From assembly GCA_016176335.1 (NCBI GenBank), contig JACOXI010000003.1, forward strand, positions 386,477 to 450,476: a DNA stretch of 64,000 bases, written 5' to 3'. Made by a program: the position numbers and the translations under genes. The notes beneath the pieces were generated by a model, which ran no database searches, was not told the DNA's origin, and saw only the letters and a program-made list of their open reading frames with translations. Positions 1 to 64,000 of the stretch are shown piece by piece. The first letter of the stretch is position 1. The number at the start of each line of letters is the position of its first letter. The DNA is from Candidatus Daviesbacteria bacterium. Lineage in GTDB: Bacteria; Patescibacteriota; Microgenomatia; Daviesbacterales; UBA10151.

Positions 1-2
1 AA

Positions 3-899
3 TACGATACCGTATTTAACTTTTTTGATCACTTCCCAACCGTCAGACAACTGGTTACCCCTTACTGGGGGTATGGAGGATCTGTTCCTGGTCCAGGAGA
101 TGGGATGTCTTTCTTTTTAGGCGGGGCCAATTTATTAGTTTTTGTAACTGCGGGATTACTGCTTATTTTTAAATGGAAAGTAATCAACCGGCAAAACAAA
201 TTATTGATGATTTGGGTAATTAGTGCACTTGCTACTGCCATTTTTTTGATGAATTATCGCTCAACTTTTGTTTGGAATAATCTACCACTTCTTCCATATT
301 TTCAATTTCCCTGGAGATTTTTGATACTGGTAACCTTTTTTATACCTTTGCTGGTGGTAATTTTTGAAAAATTTAAATACGAGAAAGCACTTTTATTACT
401 TATTATGGCTTTCATTATTTTTCCAACATGGACCTTTTTTAGACCTGAAGATTTTTTAGGTCGAGAGGATGGTTACTATCTTAATCGCTATATACCCATT
501 CCTTCTGCAAGCAGCGAATATTTAAAAACCCAAGAAGAATATTTGAGATTGCCTAAAGCAACTGAAATTAGACCGGATAAAAATTTCCCATTACTTTTTC
601 CCGAGAACGGAATAAGAAGAGTGGATAAAATCAATGATTTAAAAGTAGCTTTTGAATTTGTTTCGGATAAAGGGGAGTTAATTAATTTAAACAAGTATTA
701 TTTCCCTGGTTGGCAAGCAAGAATTGATGGAAAATCAGTAGAAATTTTTGCAGGTAAGCCTTTTGGGCAAGTGAGTATATTCGTGCCTGCGGGATCTCAC
801 AAAGCAGAAGTTTATTTCCAAGAAACAAGTTTTAGAAAATTCTTAAACTTTGCTTCCTTGGGTGCATTTTTAGTATCATTGATGATGTTGTTAATATGA
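3..899 (+). CDS. 5'-truncated polytopic membrane protein with a YfhO-like C-terminal module (FPGWQARIDGK...GSHKAEVYF) and a C-terminal TM anchor
   Basis: The frame is open from the window start (codon phase from nt 3), so the gene begins upstream. Hydrophobic helices are followed by an ~110-aa soluble domain carrying the Y-x-P-G-W-x-A-x-V/I-D-G-K motif I associate with YfhO-family C-termini, then a terminal TM helix. It ends in an ATGA overlap with the next gene. Confidence 0.55.
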   Translation, partial: YDTVFNFFDHFPTVRQLVTPYWGYGGSVPGPGDGMSFFLGGANLLVFVTAGLLLIFKWKVINRQNKLLMIWVISALATAIFLMNYRSTFVWNNLPLLPYFQFPWRFLILVTFFIPLLVVIFEKFKYEKALLLLIMAFIIFPTWTFFRPEDFLGREDGYYLNRYIPIPSASSEYLKTQEEYLRLPKATEIRPDKNFPLLFPENGIRRVDKINDLKVAFEFVSDKGELINLNKYYFPGWQARIDGKSVEIFAGKPFGQVSIFVPAGSHKAEVYFQETSFRKFLNFASLGAFLVSLMMLLI

Positions 900-2155
900 G
901 TCTTTTAAAAAAACCGTTAGTTTTTATATTGATTGCAGGTATCTTCATCAGATTGTTTTTGTCGGCTACAACATTCCACAGCGATATTCAGCATTTTGAT
1001 CTGGCAGGGTATGTATTGGGCAAAGGAAATTTATCAAATTTTTATGACTACACTTTAAGTTTAAATAAGGACGACCAGTTTCTTAAAAAATATCCTGTTG
1101 CTGTATTCAATTACCCACCTACTACCTATTTTTATTTAGGGGGCCTAAATTGGATACTAACCAGTTGGACAGATCATGATTTCCATAACAACTTTTTATT
1201 TGATTTCACAAATACTTTAGGAGATTTAAGGTTATACCTACATTTAATCTTACTTAAAGTACCTTACCTACCTTTTGATATTTTTATAGCATATCTTTTG
1301 TACAATTTGTATGCTCTCAAAAGAGAAAAAATTTTAGCATTTACTCTTTGGATTTTTAACCCTTGGGTTTTGTATTCAACTTATATGATAGGTCAGTTTG
1401 ACATTATCCCAACAGCTTTTGTAGTACTTGCTTTGTATATGGTTGTCAAAATTGCCAATCTTAACAAAGCAGTCTTTCTGGCTGCGATATTGTTGGGGGT
1501 TGGTGCGTCTTTTAAAATATATCCACTTCTTTTCTTATTACCATTGGCTTTTCTTTTGCCGACTTGGTCAAAAAGAATACAGGCAATATTTTTAGGAGTT
1601 TCGGTATATGTGGTAACAATTCTGCCTTTTATCAATTCCTTAGGATATAGGTCTACGGCTCTAGCCGCAAACCAAATGTTTAAAAGTTTGTATGCACAAA
1701 TTCCTATTTCGGGAGGAGAAGGAATCATATTATTTGTGGTACTTACCGGATTTTTTTATCTTATTTATCTATACCGAGCAGGAAGCGCTGAAAATTTATG
1801 GCAGAGGTTTTTTGTTATTCTTCTTTTATTTTTTATATTCACACATTACCATCCTCAATGGTTCTTATGGCTTACTCCTTTTTTAATTATTGAACTTATT
1901 CATAGTAATTTTAAACACGCTTTCTTGTTACTTGTGATAGCCATTACATTCCTTGGGTCTGTATCTTTGTTTGAGCAGTCGCTATCAATAGGTTTGTTTA
2001 CACCACTTAACCCATCCCTTTATAATGGAGCTAATTTATGGCAGCTGCTTAATATAAAGTATGATCTAAATCTACTGCGAAGTTTATTCCAGAGTTTATT
2101 TGTCTCTGTTGCCGGATACCTTATTTACTACTATTTTCCCAAAAAATCCGGTTAA
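896..2155 (+). CDS. Polytopic integral membrane protein, putative GT-C-fold glycosyltransferase (DUF2029/GT87-like guess)
   Basis: 419 aa with more than 10 predicted TM segments and short loops rich in aromatics. It is in-frame with the next ORF, separated by a single TAA. Confidence 0.45.
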   Translation: MSLLKKPLVFILIAGIFIRLFLSATTFHSDIQHFDLAGYVLGKGNLSNFYDYTLSLNKDDQFLKKYPVAVFNYPPTTYFYLGGLNWILTSWTDHDFHNNFLFDFTNTLGDLRLYLHLILLKVPYLPFDIFIAYLLYNLYALKREKILAFTLWIFNPWVLYSTYMIGQFDIIPTAFVVLALYMVVKIANLNKAVFLAAILLGVGASFKIYPLLFLLPLAFLLPTWSKRIQAIFLGVSVYVVTILPFINSLGYRSTALAANQMFKSLYAQIPISGGEGIILFVVLTGFFYLIYLYRAGSAENLWQRFFVILLLFFIFTHYHPQWFLWLTPFLIIELIHSNFKHAFLLLVIAITFLGSVSLFEQSLSIGLFTPLNPSLYNGANLWQLLNIKYDLNLLRSLFQSLFVSVAGYLIYYYFPKKSG

Positions 2156-2161
2156 AAAACT

Positions 2162-62226: not shown

Positions 62227-62244
62227 TTACTTATCCTTCATATT

Positions 62245-63129
62245 GTGAGATTTCCTACAAAACTGTATACTATGTTAGATTTAAAAATAAGGAAAATGAG
62301 AGACAACTTACCTAAAATTTCTATAGTAATGCCTTGTCTTAATTCGGTCGACTTCATTGAAAGATCAATAAGATCAGTTATTGAACAAGAATATAAAAAT
62401 ATTGAACTCTTTATAAAAGACGGTGGTTCTAGTGATGGTACCTTAGAAATAATTAGACATTATGCTAAAAAGTACCCACGTTTACTAAGGTGGATTTCTG
62501 AAAAGGATAAAGGGCAGGCAGATGCAATTAATAAGGGTATGAAAAAAGTAAATGGAGATATTTTAACTCATTTAAACGCAGATGATGTTTATAAAGAGGG
62601 TGCATTAAGAAAAGTTTCCGAATATTTTATGAAAAATCCTAATGTAATGTGGGCATATGGTAAGGCTGATATTATAAATGCCAATGATAAGGAAATAAGA
62701 AGGTGGATTACTCTTTATAAGAATTTTTGGCTGAAAAATTATTCTTACAACACGCTTCTAGTGTTGAATTATATTTCTTCAATGGCTTGTTTTTGGAGAA
62801 AAGAGGCAGCCAAAGAGGTAGGAGAATCGGACATTAATCAGCCTTTTGTTATTGATTATCATTATTGGTTAAGACTAGGAAAAAAATATAAGGCAGGAGT
62901 TATAAATGAGTATCTTTCAAGTTTCAGAATAAGCTATTCAAATAAAAGCAGTATAGCTTTTGTTAAACAATTTCAAGATGAATTTAATGTTGCCAAGAGA
63001 TTTACCAATAATAATTTAATTCTTTTTTTACATCTTTTACATTATAACCTAATAATTTTTATATATTCCATTTTAAAAATTATTAAGAATTTTACTTCTA
63101 GAAATTCAAATATCCAGGGTAGTGCATAA
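62245..63129 (+). CDS. GT2-family glycosyltransferase (paralog of ORF 56180)
   Basis: LPKISIVMPCLNSVDFIERSIRSVIEQEYKNIELFIKDGGSSDGT...KDKGQADAINKG...NADDVY. Confidence 0.7.
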   Translation: MRFPTKLYTMLDLKIRKMRDNLPKISIVMPCLNSVDFIERSIRSVIEQEYKNIELFIKDGGSSDGTLEIIRHYAKKYPRLLRWISEKDKGQADAINKGMKKVNGDILTHLNADDVYKEGALRKVSEYFMKNPNVMWAYGKADIINANDKEIRRWITLYKNFWLKNYSYNTLLVLNYISSMACFWRKEAAKEVGESDINQPFVIDYHYWLRLGKKYKAGVINEYLSSFRISYSNKSSIAFVKQFQDEFNVAKRFTNNNLILFLHLLHYNLIIFIYSILKIIKNFTSRNSNIQGSA

Positions 63130-63138
63130 AAGATACGC

Positions 63139-64000
63139 ATGAAAGATAATACATTCTCTTTAAGAGATAAAAAAATCTTAGTGACTGGTGGGGCTGGTTT
63201 TCTGGGGAAACATGTAGTTGATAAGATTATTAAGAAGAACCCAAAAAAAGTGGTCATACCTAGATCTAAAGATTATGATTTAAGAAATCAGAAAGATTGC
63301 GAAAAGGTAGTTCAAGGTATGGATTTAGTAATCCATTTGGCTGCAAATGGTGGTGGTATTGGTTATAATCGGGCAAATCCAGGGACACTTTGTTATGACA
63401 ATCTAGTGATGGGAACTCACATGATAGAAGAGGCAAGACGAGCAGGAGTACAGAAGTTTGTCGGTTTAGGTACTATTTGCCAATATCCTAAATATACCCC
63501 CGTACCTTTTAAAGAAGAAGATCTATGGAAAGGTTATCCCGAAGAAACAAACGCTCCCTATGGTCTTGCAAAAAAAATGCTTTTAGTCCTATCTCAAGCC
63601 TTCAGGCAGCAGTATGGATTTAATGCGATCCACTTAATGCCAGTTAATCTATACGGCCCTGGGGATAATTTTAACCCCGAGTCTTCACATGTAATACCGG
63701 CTTTGATAAAAAAATTTGTGGACGCAAAGATTAGAAATGATGAATTTGTAGTAGTCTGGGGTTCAGGTAATCCAACAAGAGAATTTCTATATGTTGAAGA
63801 TGCCGCCAGAGCAATAGTTTTAGCTGCGGAGAGATATAATAAACCAGCTCCAATCAATTTAGGATCTTCCTTCGAGATATCTATCAAAGACTTGGTAAAC
63901 TTGATAAAAAAATTAACAGGATACAAAGGTAATATTGTCTGGGATAAAACTAAGCCAGATGGACAACCGAGGAGAAAATTGGATACATCAAAAGCAGAAA
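63139..64000 (+). CDS. fcl: GDP-L-fucose synthase, bacterial Fcl/WcaG-like; 3' end beyond the window
   Basis: Translating from the ATG at 63139 gives [14 protein letters not shown]...[54 protein letters not shown]...[19 protein letters not shown]...[13 protein letters not shown], a close match to the Fcl signature. It is not in the ORF track because no stop is reached. Confidence 0.75.

Follow-up and report, generated by a model that had tools for sequence, protein, structure and literature searches.

Enzymes of the GT-CA class are supplied by two kinds of donor, with lipid-P-monosaccharides serving the families GT39, GT83 and GT53 and lipid-PP-oligosaccharides serving GT66 (PMC10920833, Table 1). 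Three-component systems pair a synthase and a flippase with a GT-C, and flipping of lipid-P-monosaccharides by a MATE flippase has been described (PMC11127046), while in M. tuberculosis PpgS cooperates with the GT-C Rv3779 and with Rv3632, a small membrane protein (PMC3485146). The 64-kb window analysed here, i.e. the whole stretch of DNA under study, derives from a MAG of Candidatus Daviesbacteria (CPR/Patescibacteria) and represents one sugar-polymer assembly locus. We take it to be the greater part of a locus for assembly of a cell-envelope glycan, a similar form of which occurs in related genomes, and by analogy its logic appears closest to arabinogalactan/LAM assembly in Corynebacteriales.

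Gene content and extent of the locus

ORF listing combined with Pfam and NCBIfam scans confirmed the glycosylation cluster proposed in the initial annotation almost gene for gene. The window contains 53 real genes (42 on the forward and 11 on the reverse strand) at a coding fraction of 98.6%, compared with about 55 genes annotated before, and the assignment of all of them to glycan biosynthesis held except for g41, g45 and g50, which lack a clear glycan assignment. ORF g53 (63594-63926, -) was discarded as spurious, as it lies antisense to the GDP-fucose-synthase-like gene leaving the right end. The GT-C-type polytopic proteins number 16 (30% of genes) and are accompanied by 13 GT2 and 6 GT4 enzymes, together matching the roughly 19 soluble transferases previously counted, as well as by two Wzx-type flippases, seven methyltransferase domains (g26, g33, g34, g35, g39, the g42 C-terminus and, weakly, g50) and a split transketolase, all three as annotated, and by five SDR sugar-nucleotide enzymes and one NDP-sugar dehydrogenase. 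The source organism also fits the uncultivated low-GC bacterium that had been anticipated. As g01 begins before the window and a GDP-fucose-synthase-like gene leaves its right end, the cluster is larger than the window; it extends past both ends and measures at least 68-70 kb as a whole. A highly reduced cell with a genome of about 1 Mb would thus appear to devote about 6-8% of it to an elaborate, so far undescribed surface glycan.

The two Wzx-type (MOP) flippases are encoded by g04 (3330..4811, +; 12 TM; Polysacc_synt_3, 3.2e-54) and g18 (24247..25524, +; Polysacc_synt_3, 5e-18). Cytoplasmic transferases were assigned by Pfam and comprise the conserved-core genes g08, g09 (GT2) and g10 (GT4) at 11955..14761 (+), g16 (GT2) and g17 (GT4) at 22426..24250 (+), g19 (GT2, with weak PgfS/ArnC-like NCBIfam matches) and g20 (GT4) at 25442..27420 (+), and g31 (39297..40310, -), g36 (43999..44856, +), g46 (56180..56980, +) and g52 (62245..63129, +), all GT2, the latter two sharing 44% identity. 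Methyltransferases are interspersed among them, again according to Pfam: 31556..36635 carries g25 (GT2, +), g26 (methyltransferase, +), g27 (GT2, -), g28 (GT4, +) and g29 (GT4, -), three SAM-dependent methyltransferases (g33, g34, g35) lie at 41859..43958 (-), g38 (GT4) and g39 (methyltransferase) at 46711..48637 (+), and g42 (52403..54007, +) is a GT2-methyltransferase fusion whose two parts are separate genes in a second genome (L004). The same genome also maintains the adjacency of an AftD-like gene followed by a gene of the type of g41 (52098..52406, +), a 102-aa protein with 4 TM that gave no family match in the family scans.

Sugar-nucleotide functions are represented by g21 (27422..28456, -), a GalE-like SDR epimerase/dehydratase (Pfam; NCBIfam galE 144 bits, under cut-off), the NDP-sugar 6-dehydrogenase g23 (TIGR03026, 310.6 bits, above the 189.8 cut-off) with the SDR g24 (Pfam) at 29209..31559 (+), the transketolase halves g47/g48 (N-terminal and C-terminal; 56977..58794, +; Pfam, NCBIfam), and g51 (61147..62226, -), an SDR similar to NDP-sugar 4,6-dehydratases (Pfam, NCBIfam). 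Two further SDRs resemble GDP-fucose synthase, namely g49, located with g50 at 59009..60888 (+; Pfam, NCBIfam; Fcl 227 bits, under the cut-off of 500), and g54 at 63133..64000 (+; Fcl 271 bits for 289 aa). Among the three polyprenol-P-sugar synthases initially proposed, g22 and g44 were retained and g19 is doubtful, with all of these assignments falling under NCBIfam equivalog cut-offs. The GT2 g22 (28453..29166, -) resembles polyprenyl/dolichyl-phosphate hexose synthases in full-length alignments (AglJ 117 bits, Dol-P-hexose transferase 71 bits), and the PpgS-like polyprenyl-phosphate sugar synthase g44 (PpgS 115 bits over its full length, under the cut-off of 370) is followed by the small membrane protein g45 (both within 55184..56211, +), a DUF2304 protein at 65.5 bits (cut-off 25.5); Rv3632 is also a DUF2304 protein.

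Within the window, Pfam yielded no match at E<=1e-3 to Bac_transf, Glycos_transf_4, Wzy_C, Wzz or ABC_tran and NCBIfam no equivalog match to Gmd, in agreement with the reported lack of a priming PGT, Wzy, ABC exporter and Gmd; a GtrA-family protein was likewise not detected there. Since neither an initiating phosphoglycosyltransferase nor an LCP-type ligase nor a recognisable polymerase is encoded in the window, the start and the end of the pathway are missing from it.

GT-C-type membrane proteins

Domain searches, fold or homologs identified the membrane proteins as GT-C-type enzymes rather than transporters, and the 16 found bear out the earlier count of at least 15, with the GT87-like g02 as an addition. 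The six PMT_2/ArnT-like genes recognised before comprise g07 (10261..11940, +), a PMT_2/STT3-like GT-C (Pfam PMT_2 5.8e-13, STT3 1.9e-7), and the five tandem PMT_2/PMT-type genes g11, g12, g13, g14 and g15 (14758..22429, +; Pfam). The Pfam cut-off was passed by g07 and g12-g15, and g11 remained below it (22.6 vs 26.1 bits). Mutual BLASTP identity of g07, g13, g14 and g15 was 30-34%, and the alignment showed TM1 to be followed immediately by a DE motif in five paralogs (g07, g11, g13, g14, g15) and by EE in g12.

The four genes initially described as YfhO-like (g01, g03, g30, g40) had to be reassigned, as no window protein matched Pfam YfhO. Two of them are PTPS_related-type GT-Cs: g01 (1..899, +), whose frame is open to base 1, supplies the C-terminal portion (~298 aa) of a polytopic protein of 547 aa, complete in L001, and its paralog g03 (2162..3319, +; 385 aa; BLASTP E 2.7e-7) reached 24.8 bits for PF10131 against a cut-off of 26.4; homologs of g01 match the same family. 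Between them lies g02 (896..2155, +; 419 aa, ~8 TM), a GT87/PIG-M-like GT-C (PF09594 GT87, 24.6 bits vs cut-off 25). In a mixed set of 91 members, made up of the g02 query plus, for each of g01, g02 and g03, 30 homologs, PTPS_related (PF10131) was matched by 41 (best 4e-17), GT87 by 10, PMT_2 by 13, PIG-M by 7 and PIG-U by 3, these counts being set-wide rather than per member. The other two belong to the AftD family, with g30 (36764..39316, +; 850 aa) carrying a large extracytoplasmic C-terminal domain and g40 (48634..52101, +; 1155 aa) one of ~650 aa; g30 aligns with the N-terminal 540 aa of g40 at 26% identity (E 9e-35). GT-C_AftD (PF11847) was matched by 22 of 30 members of the g30/g40 family (best 2.5e-21) and is carried by homologs of g40, and the Pfam scan gave no direct match for g40 itself.

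Immediately after g04, g05 (4808..8233, +; 1141 aa) combines a GT-C membrane module bearing an HDGxWH loop with an N-terminal extracytoplasmic deacetylase/GH57-like barrel (~residues 25-470) and a C-terminal globular domain resembling that of AglB, according to a moderately confident structure model (pLDDT 78.9, pTM 0.63). Its paralog g06 (8241..10259, +; 672 aa), of the same HDGxWH type, lacks the N-terminal domain and shares invariant residues with the membrane module of g05 (30% identity across 650 aa, E 2e-74). The GT-C-fold enzyme g37 (44795..46738, -) belongs to an unannotated, clade-restricted family and also has an acidic pair directly after TM1, within GGDDW; g32 (40327..41901, -; motif DGDSW) is a paralog of its N-terminal module (33% identity across 212 aa, E 4e-26). 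The single PIG-V-like gene was confirmed as g43 (53970..55196, +), a PIG-V/GT87-like GT-C (PF04188 45.9 bits, cut-off 22.4).

Conservation and proposed assembly route

Synteny of the locus with the second genome spans at least 68 kb, with identical gene order and the same 44-kb spacing between g05 and g40 homologs as in the window, this collinearity having been checked in that one other genome. Most of 39 related species retain the left core g01-g09: g06 occurs in all 39 loci, g01, g03-g06, g08 and g09 in 36-39, g07 in 34 and g02 in 28, with g08 (36), g09 (36) and g10 (23) at ~60% identity. Large polytopic ORFs within 23.4 kb around g05 reach a median of 11 across 38 related loci. The paralog expansion is not confined to the source genome, contrary to the earlier view of it as unusual, given that the left core is retained across Daviesbacteria and that synteny of the whole locus extends to a second genome.

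We favour, at a probability of roughly 0.6, a hybrid, two-compartment glycan assembly line in which lipid-linked oligosaccharides are built inside, flipped and handed to GT-C arrays outside. The SDR enzymes, the NDP-sugar dehydrogenase and the split transketolase, recognised at family level, would supply modified nucleotide sugars; judging from their families, the 13 GT2, 6 GT4 and 7 methyltransferases may use a polyprenyl carrier at the inner membrane face to form methylated oligosaccharides, and the two Wzx-type transporters would flip these intermediates. Enzymes g22 and g44 (with its partner g45), of the Dpm1/GtrB/PpgS type, would charge polyprenyl phosphate with single sugars. Outside, the 16 GT-C-type enzymes, assigned by fold or family to six groups (PMT_2, PTPS_related, AftD-like, GT87/PIG-V-like, HDGxWH and GGDDW), may extend, branch or transfer the glycan from lipid-linked donors, with donors and acceptors presumed. 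Handling of the flipped oligosaccharide is best ascribed, as a candidate role, to the conserved triad of g04, g05 and g06, and the deacetylase-like domain of g05 could alter the product in situ. What is made is probably a heteropolysaccharide associated with the wall or a surface protein bearing glycans, or the two together. As Wzx-type (MOP) transporters may flip lipid-PP-oligosaccharides or lipid-P-monosaccharides, two flippases are no proof of the oligosaccharide route.

The genes could also be divided among several distinct glycans. A tentative but substantial possibility is a glyco-island of independent systems, in which the core g01-g10 and the PMT_2 array make a lineage-wide envelope polymer and the clade-specific g30-g46 adds decorations to it or produces another glycan. 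Two Wzx genes, the wide retention of the left core, strand switches in the middle and right parts and the unequal spread of homologs (more than 600 for g05, whose family profile retrieved 2497 representative clusters, vs 49 for g40 and 41 for g37) are consistent with such an arrangement. However, all 44 kb between g05 and g40 are collinear in the other genome, and coding density together with start/stop codon overlaps suggests coordinated operons; moreover, independent systems are compatible with the hybrid route and would refine rather than exclude it.

It is unlikely that g05/g06, and possibly g37, act like oligosaccharyltransferases and transfer a lipid-PP-oligosaccharide flipped by Wzx to protein or wall in one piece, in a protein-glycosylation system of the PglB/AglB kind with additional trimming and decoration. 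In favour, g05 directly follows g04 in 37 of 39 loci, and three arginines invariant in its family (R683, R874, R905) could bind diphosphate. Against this, no window protein carries a WWDYG-type motif, and PDB searches detected no similarity to STT3, PglB or AglB at the sequence level.

Rather improbable is the pure single-sugar route, in which no lipid-PP-oligosaccharide exists and flipped polyprenol-P sugars are added stepwise by GT-Cs to S-layer or surface proteins, as in O-mannosylation. This resembles the monosaccharide route originally proposed, for which the synthase-like g22 and g44/g45 do speak, as do the six PMT_2/PMT-type genes with their DE motif, the absence of PGT and Wzy from the window and the ability of MOP-family flippases to carry lipid-P-monosaccharides (PMC11127046). 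One-at-a-time addition cannot, however, be the whole route, because 19 GT2/GT4 enzymes, seven methyltransferases and two Wzx point to flipped lipid-linked oligosaccharides; at least 17 cytoplasmic GT2/GT4 and most methyltransferases would be left without a role, and the locus has no target protein gene. In addition, polysaccharide/lipoglycan assembly, not protein glycosylation, is the known setting of the AftD-, GT87-, PIG-V- and PpgS/DUF2304-like parts, which are no less similar to the machinery for wall polysaccharides than to that of protein O-mannosylation. A conventional Wzx/Wzy-dependent locus with a hidden Wzy is highly improbable despite its two Wzx, many GT2/GT4 enzymes and the notorious divergence of Wzy proteins (PMC10920833), as the family-less polytopic proteins were all placed in ArnT/PMT/STT3/AftD-type GT-C families by fold or homologs and Pfam found no Wzy_C, Wzz or PGT.

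Comparison with known systems

With Wzx/Wzy O-antigen and capsule loci, the Daviesbacteria locus shares Wzx flippases, many GT2/GT4 and sugar-nucleotide modification genes in one place, but the window lacks PGT, Wzy and Wzz, almost a third of its genes encode GT-Cs, and its left core is conserved across the whole candidate class instead of being hypervariable. The GT66 oligosaccharyltransferases STT3/AglB/PglB are the best structural matches of g05 and g37, and the resemblance includes the predicted AglB-like C-terminal domain of g05 and the Pfam STT3 match of g07, whereas the lack of the WWDYG motif and of sequence-level similarity, three additional TM helices ahead of the catalytic loop in g05/g06 and the deacetylase-like domain fused in g05 set the window proteins apart. 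PMT/ArnT enzymes (GT39/GT83, Pfam PMT/PMT_2) share the fold class GT-CA, the Pfam assignment of g07 and g12-g15 and the DE pair found in all six paralogs except g12; in contrast, the window holds six paralogs, the closest four just 30-34% identical, without MIR domains and in a monoderm CPR cell without lipid A. The three-component systems (GtrB/GtrA/Gtr*, CsbB/GtcA/YfhO, C. youngae ORF15/ORF14/ORF12) likewise combine a GT2 polyprenyl-P-sugar synthase, a flippase and an outside GT-C (PMC11127046), yet their role is confined to decorating a polymer of other origin, while GT-Cs dominate here, with 16 genes vs only 2-3 candidate synthases and neither a GtrA-family protein nor a Pfam YfhO match in the window.

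Compared with arabinogalactan/LAM assembly in Corynebacteriales (Emb, AftA-D, PimE/GT87, PpgS-Rv3632-Rv3779), the locus lacks a UbiA-type DPPR synthase and DprE1/E2, and thus provides no evidence for arabinofuranose; it also lacks Emb homologs, has Wzx in place of an ABC exporter, shows identities too low for orthology and unites in a single locus of a CPR bacterium with a ~1-Mb genome what is scattered there. Nevertheless, both would begin with a cytoplasmic lipid-linked start and employ many outside GT-Cs using polyprenyl-P-sugars, and both comprise AftD-family proteins with large extracytoplasmic domains (g30, g40), GT87-like enzymes (g02, g43) and a PpgS-like synthase with a DUF2304 protein (g44, g45).

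Gene content and extent of the locus

After ORF listing and translation, the window was credited with 53 real genes, of which 42 are encoded on the + and 11 on the − strand; 98.6% of the 64 kb is coding. At the left end, g01 (ORF 105–899; genes are numbered from left to right) stays open to base 1 and encodes the C-terminal portion of a 547-aa protein, whose gene is complete on the identical short contig L001. At the right end, the 110-aa ORF at 63594–63926 (−) was discarded as an artefact lying antisense to a GDP-fucose-synthase-like gene (63133–64000, +) that runs off the end of the window. 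A mobile-element or recent-duplication origin was rejected: GC content is flat (0.30–0.38 across the window), tRNA genes are lacking, and the only repeats are short stretches left between paralogs that have diverged.

Pfam searches of all window proteins identified 13 GT2 enzymes (g08, g09, g16, g19, g22, g25, g27, g31, g36, g42, g44, g46, g52), six GT4 enzymes (g10, g17, g20, g28, g29, g38), five SDR enzymes (g21, g24, g49, g51, g54) and methyltransferase domains in g26, g33, g34, g35, g39, the C-terminal half of g42 and, weakly, g50, so that the gene counts of the initial annotation proved right almost to the gene. Further genes encode an NDP-sugar dehydrogenase (g23; TIGR03026, 310.6 bits, above the cut-off), a split transketolase (g47/g48) and a DUF2304 protein (g45). 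Two Fcl-like genes are present (g49 and the gene at 63133–64000), and no SDR in the window was a Gmd equivalog in NCBIfam. The GT2–methyltransferase fusion g42 (52403–54007, 534 aa), whose methyltransferase half has a paralog in g39 (31% identity), is represented at the same position of locus L004 (13763–15390), which belongs to a second, syntenic genome (GCA_964489875.1), by a separate GT2 (311 aa) and methyltransferase (229 aa). In L004, a DegT-family gene (16467–17636) with RfbH (CDP-6-deoxy-4-hexulose 3-dehydrase) as best match (230 bits) adjoins the split transketolase, a hint that a 3,6-dideoxy or branched sugar is made; this gene is missing from the window, where the transketolase pair adjoins the GT2 gene g46 instead.

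The genes g05 and g40 correspond to HYS96_02260 and HYS96_02435 (identical proteins) on a Candidatus Daviesbacteria MAG contig of 456,706 bp. Exact-protein look-up returned no record for g52, and the g49-bearing contigs found in this way stop within the window. Conservation was counted by tblastn over 39 related loci with 10-kb flanks, which revealed g05 and g06 in all 39, g03 in 38, g01 and g04 in 37 each, g08 and g09 in 36 each, g07 in 34, g02 in 28 and g10 in 23. In this second genome, GCA_964489875.1, the homologs of g05 and g40 are separated by 44 kb, the spacing also seen in the window, and gene order is the same; five or six further polytopic genes (PMT_2, STT3/PTPS_related and unassigned) are located upstream of the Wzx gene, and the locus covers at least 55.5–123.3 kb of the contig. 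As g40 and g37, the latter from a small family, have only 49 and 41 homologs, respectively, the right half is restricted to a sub-clade. Many genome records with clear copies of the Daviesbacteria-type locus (L007, L009–L013, L015, L016 and others) bear the title 'uncultured Gammaproteobacteria bacterium isolate binchicken_...'; these titles look like placeholder or wrong taxonomy labels.

Polytopic proteins of the GT-C type

By threshold match, family transfer or predicted fold, all 16 polytopic non-Wzx proteins of the window are of the GT-C type. The fold was recognized as a polytopic core of 8–13 TM helices superposable on solved GT-C enzymes, based on predicted structures of two proteins, one at moderate confidence, and was accompanied by conserved acidic residue(s) in the first extracytoplasmic loop after the entry helix. 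These residues form a DE motif in g07, g11, g13, g14 and g15 and an EE motif in g12, while hhalign aligned GGDDW of g37 and DGDSW of g32 to the DE motif. A transporter identity of the membrane proteins was rejected, as only the two Wzx proteins g04 and g18 gave a transporter family and no transporter fold was obtained otherwise.

Pfam scores above the respective cut-offs were obtained for g07, g12, g14 and g15 (PMT_2; 49.8, 41.3, 48.1 and 63.0 against 26.1), g13 (PMT; 34.6 against 22.7) and g43 (PIG-V), with g07 also matching STT3 (31.4 bits against 24.5). Just under the cut-offs were g11 (PMT_2; 22.6 against 26.1), g02 (GT87; 24.6 against 25 bits) and g03 (PTPS_related, PF10131; 24.8 against 26.4). 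The assignment of g03 thus rests on homologs: PTPS_related was matched by 41 members (best 4.1e-17) of a mixed 91-member set consisting of the g02 query and 30 homologs each of g01, g02 and g03 from related loci, 60 of which are g01/g03 homologs. Other matches within this set were to PMT_2 (13), GT87 (10), PIG-M (7) and PIG-U (3). The label YfhO-like used in the initial annotation had to be abandoned, since the YfhO model (PF09586) matched no window protein at E ≤ 1e-3 and only 3 of the 91 related proteins, weakly (best E 3.4e-4).

Seven proteins (g01, g05, g06, g30, g32, g37 and g40) showed no Pfam or NCBIfam match, and NCBIfam gave none for the ten polytopic window proteins scanned. All-against-all BLASTP paired g01 with g03, g30 with the N-terminus of g40 (26% identity, 540 aa) and g32 with the N-terminus of g37 (33% identity, 212 aa). 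For g30 and g40, both featuring large extracytoplasmic domains, GT-C_AftD (PF11847, formerly DUF3367) returned no direct match at E ≤ 1; the model matched 22 of 30 aligned members of their family (best 2.5e-21), which are mostly 33–85% identical to g40 with a few distant rows at 21–28%, and precomputed matches gave the same assignment. Sequence searches against all PDB chains yielded no meaningful match for g05, g37, g40, g02, g43 or the profiles A1–A4 built from window protein families. The tandem genes g13–g15 (17577–22429) encode anciently diverged paralogs of about 30–34% identity and were tallied in 34 of the 39 related loci, a tally that may include paralog cross-matches.

The HDGxWH and GGDDW families

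The tandem genes g05 and g06 (4808–10259) likewise encode anciently diverged paralogs, the C-terminus of g05 sharing 30% identity with g06 over 650 aa in the all-against-all BLASTP. Structural comparison of the GT-C membrane module of g05 gave 19.1 for STT3B, 16.2 for Pmt4, 16.0 each for Pmt2 and AftA, 15.8 for PglB and 15.5 for AglB. By hhalign, the g05 family reached probabilities of 17.6% against the PMT_2 paralogs, 3% against the AftD-like and 0.8% against the g37 family, none of them significant; the predicted fold is thus the basis for placing g05 in the GT-C class. Invariant throughout the family, g06 included, are H627, D628, G629, W631, H632, H659, D663, D679 and R683, together with E739, K795, R874, E890, R905 and others. 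The HDGxWH loop, carrying the invariant H627–D628 pair, comes after the module's fourth helix and should be extracytoplasmic, given that the N-domain of g05 is located outside.

A profile of the g05 family retrieved 2497 representative clusters among 1.84 billion (50% identity), 1356 of them at E ≤ 1e-30; neither Pfam nor NCBIfam holds a model for the HDGxWH membrane module. Full-length members occur in about 60 species-level Daviesbacteria genomes and the membrane module alone in Woesebacteria and Shapirobacteria, while the deacetylase/GH57-like N-domain (4808–6220 in g05) is a separate protein in Amesbacteria and others (L076–L083). As each part occurs alone elsewhere, we concluded that the g05 architecture is a lineage-specific fusion. 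The solved GT-C paralog pairs Pmt1–Pmt2 and EmbA–EmbB are heterodimers, and by analogy g05–g06 and g13–g15 might pair in the same manner.

Apart from the Pfam STT3 match of g07, sequence-level homology to STT3 was not detected, no oligosaccharyltransferase chain in the PDB being recovered for g05, g37 or their profiles, and a regex search for the WWDYG-type motif found neither WW[DE][YWF]G nor WWD in any window protein. The extracytoplasmic C-terminal domain of g37 (residues ~510–647; gene 44795–46738) gave a weak match to the LCP ligase TagU with profile A2, built from the g37 family (E 0.018). This value is too weak to use; no LCP ligase was found in the locus.

Pathway markers and proposed assembly route

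Two Wzx flippases are present, g04 (3.2e-54) and g18 (5e-18; both Polysacc_synt_3). No Pfam match to an initiating phosphoglycosyltransferase (PGT; Bac_transf, Glycos_transf_4), to Wzy (Wzy_C) or to Wzz was obtained among all 53 genes, nor were these found in the visible flanks of GCA_964489875.1. An ABC-dependent pathway received no support, the window containing no Wzm/Wzt-type exporter and no ABC_tran or ABC2_membrane match, and a hidden Wzy was dismissed because none of the 16 polytopic non-Wzx proteins looks like a Wzy or O-antigen ligase. The Pfam and NCBIfam scans thereby bear out the earlier claims that PGT, Wzy, ABC exporter and Gmd are absent from the window and that this is not a classical Wzx/Wzy locus. 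Neither the start of the pathway (PGT) nor its end (ligase or acceptor) lies in the window.

Full-length NCBIfam alignments below the equivalog cut-offs were obtained for g44 with PpgS (115 against 370 bits), which denies g44 a PpgS orthology assignment, and for g22 with AglJ (117 against 325 bits). The genes g44 and g45 (DUF2304, 65.5 against 25.5) are adjacent and overlapping, as in the GT2 synthase-like/DUF2304 arrangement of PpgS-Rv3632, and such a pair also occurs in the second genome. No GtrA match was found in the window, leaving g45 and g41 (no family) as sole candidates for a GtrA- or SMR-type small flippase. The g41 product (52098–52406) comprises 102 aa with four predicted TM helices, its gene begins before the AftD-like g40 has ended, across the stop codon of the latter, and a 112-aa counterpart occupies the same place in the second genome. 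A role as a small subunit or as a flippase for lipid-linked sugars is conceivable.

Based on what the assigned families and folds do elsewhere, an assembly route can be proposed. Nucleotide sugars would be tailored by g23 to uronic acid and by the SDRs, two of them Fcl-like, to 6-deoxy or epimerised sugars, with the split transketolase g47/g48 possibly contributing an unusual carbon-skeleton step. Lipid-linked oligosaccharides would be assembled and methylated in the cytoplasm by the 19 GT2/GT4 enzymes and the methyltransferases and flipped by g04 and g18, while g22, and g44 with its DUF2304 partner g45, would make polyprenyl-P-monosaccharide donors. Outside the membrane, the 16 GT-C enzymes would extend, branch or transfer, with the triad of the Wzx g04, g05 and g06 as the leading candidate to handle the flipped unit. 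Among GT-CA enzymes, GT39, GT83 and GT53 use lipid-P-monosaccharides and GT66 lipid-PP-oligosaccharides as donors (PMC10920833, Table 1), and the synthase–flippase–GT-C logic is widespread (PMC11127046). The initial annotation had favoured addition of sugars purely one at a time from lipid-P-monosaccharides, which leaves the 19 soluble glycosyltransferases and the two Wzx proteins unaccounted for. It had also raised a glycoprotein or S-layer glycan as a possible product.

We tentatively propose, at a probability of roughly one in four, that a complex methylated heteropolysaccharide of the wall, or a glycoconjugate, is assembled outside the membrane in the style of arabinogalactan by about 20 GT-C enzymes in Daviesbacteria and probably in other Microgenomates too. 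Central to this reading is the previously unrecognised HDGxWH family, with g05, which joins its module to a deacetylase-like domain and is regularly preceded by a Wzx, acting as transferase or polymerase for flipped lipid-linked units and coupling de-N-acetylation to transfer.

The building blocks are all of known kinds. New are the scale, with 16 or more GT-C genes within 64 kb, rising to about 19–22 when the left flank is included, the retention of such a locus in a reduced genome, and two model-less GT-C families, the large one fused to a deacetylase-like domain. The unusual density is judged against 38 related loci (median of 11 large polytopic ORFs per 23.4-kb locus) and against the GT-C numbers usual for model bacteria; the GT-C count of the locus is about the number known from the whole Mycobacterium tuberculosis genome. 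Should activity be shown, g05/g06 and the smaller g32/g37 family could found new CAZy families. With reduced genomes of about 1 Mb, CPR/Patescibacteria presumably live attached to other cells, yet their surface chemistry has hardly been described. Full-text literature searches for gene clusters of GT-C enzymes or of glycosylation in Daviesbacteria, Microgenomates or Patescibacteria brought up no publication, and the words glycan, glycosyl, polysaccharide, S-layer and teichoic are absent from a recent perspective on Patescibacteria biology. In this group, the closed chromosome CP066688.1 measures 0.82 Mb and the longest single contigs reach about 1.15 Mb, so that the locus, at 64 kb or more, takes up about 6–8% of the genome, a share for one conserved locus that suggests an unexpectedly complex surface glycan. 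If the proposed reading is true, this coat could be a main determinant of how these ultra-small cells deal with hosts and phages.

In M. tuberculosis, PpgS and Rv3632 feed the GT-C enzyme Rv3779 (PMC3485146), an arrangement mirrored by g44/g45, although the similarity of g44 remains under the NCBIfam cut-off. Overall, the AftD-, GT87-, PIG-V- and PpgS/DUF2304-like components, together with the large extracytoplasmic domains of g30 and g40, recall the assembly of wall polysaccharides in Corynebacteriales more than protein O-mannosylation.
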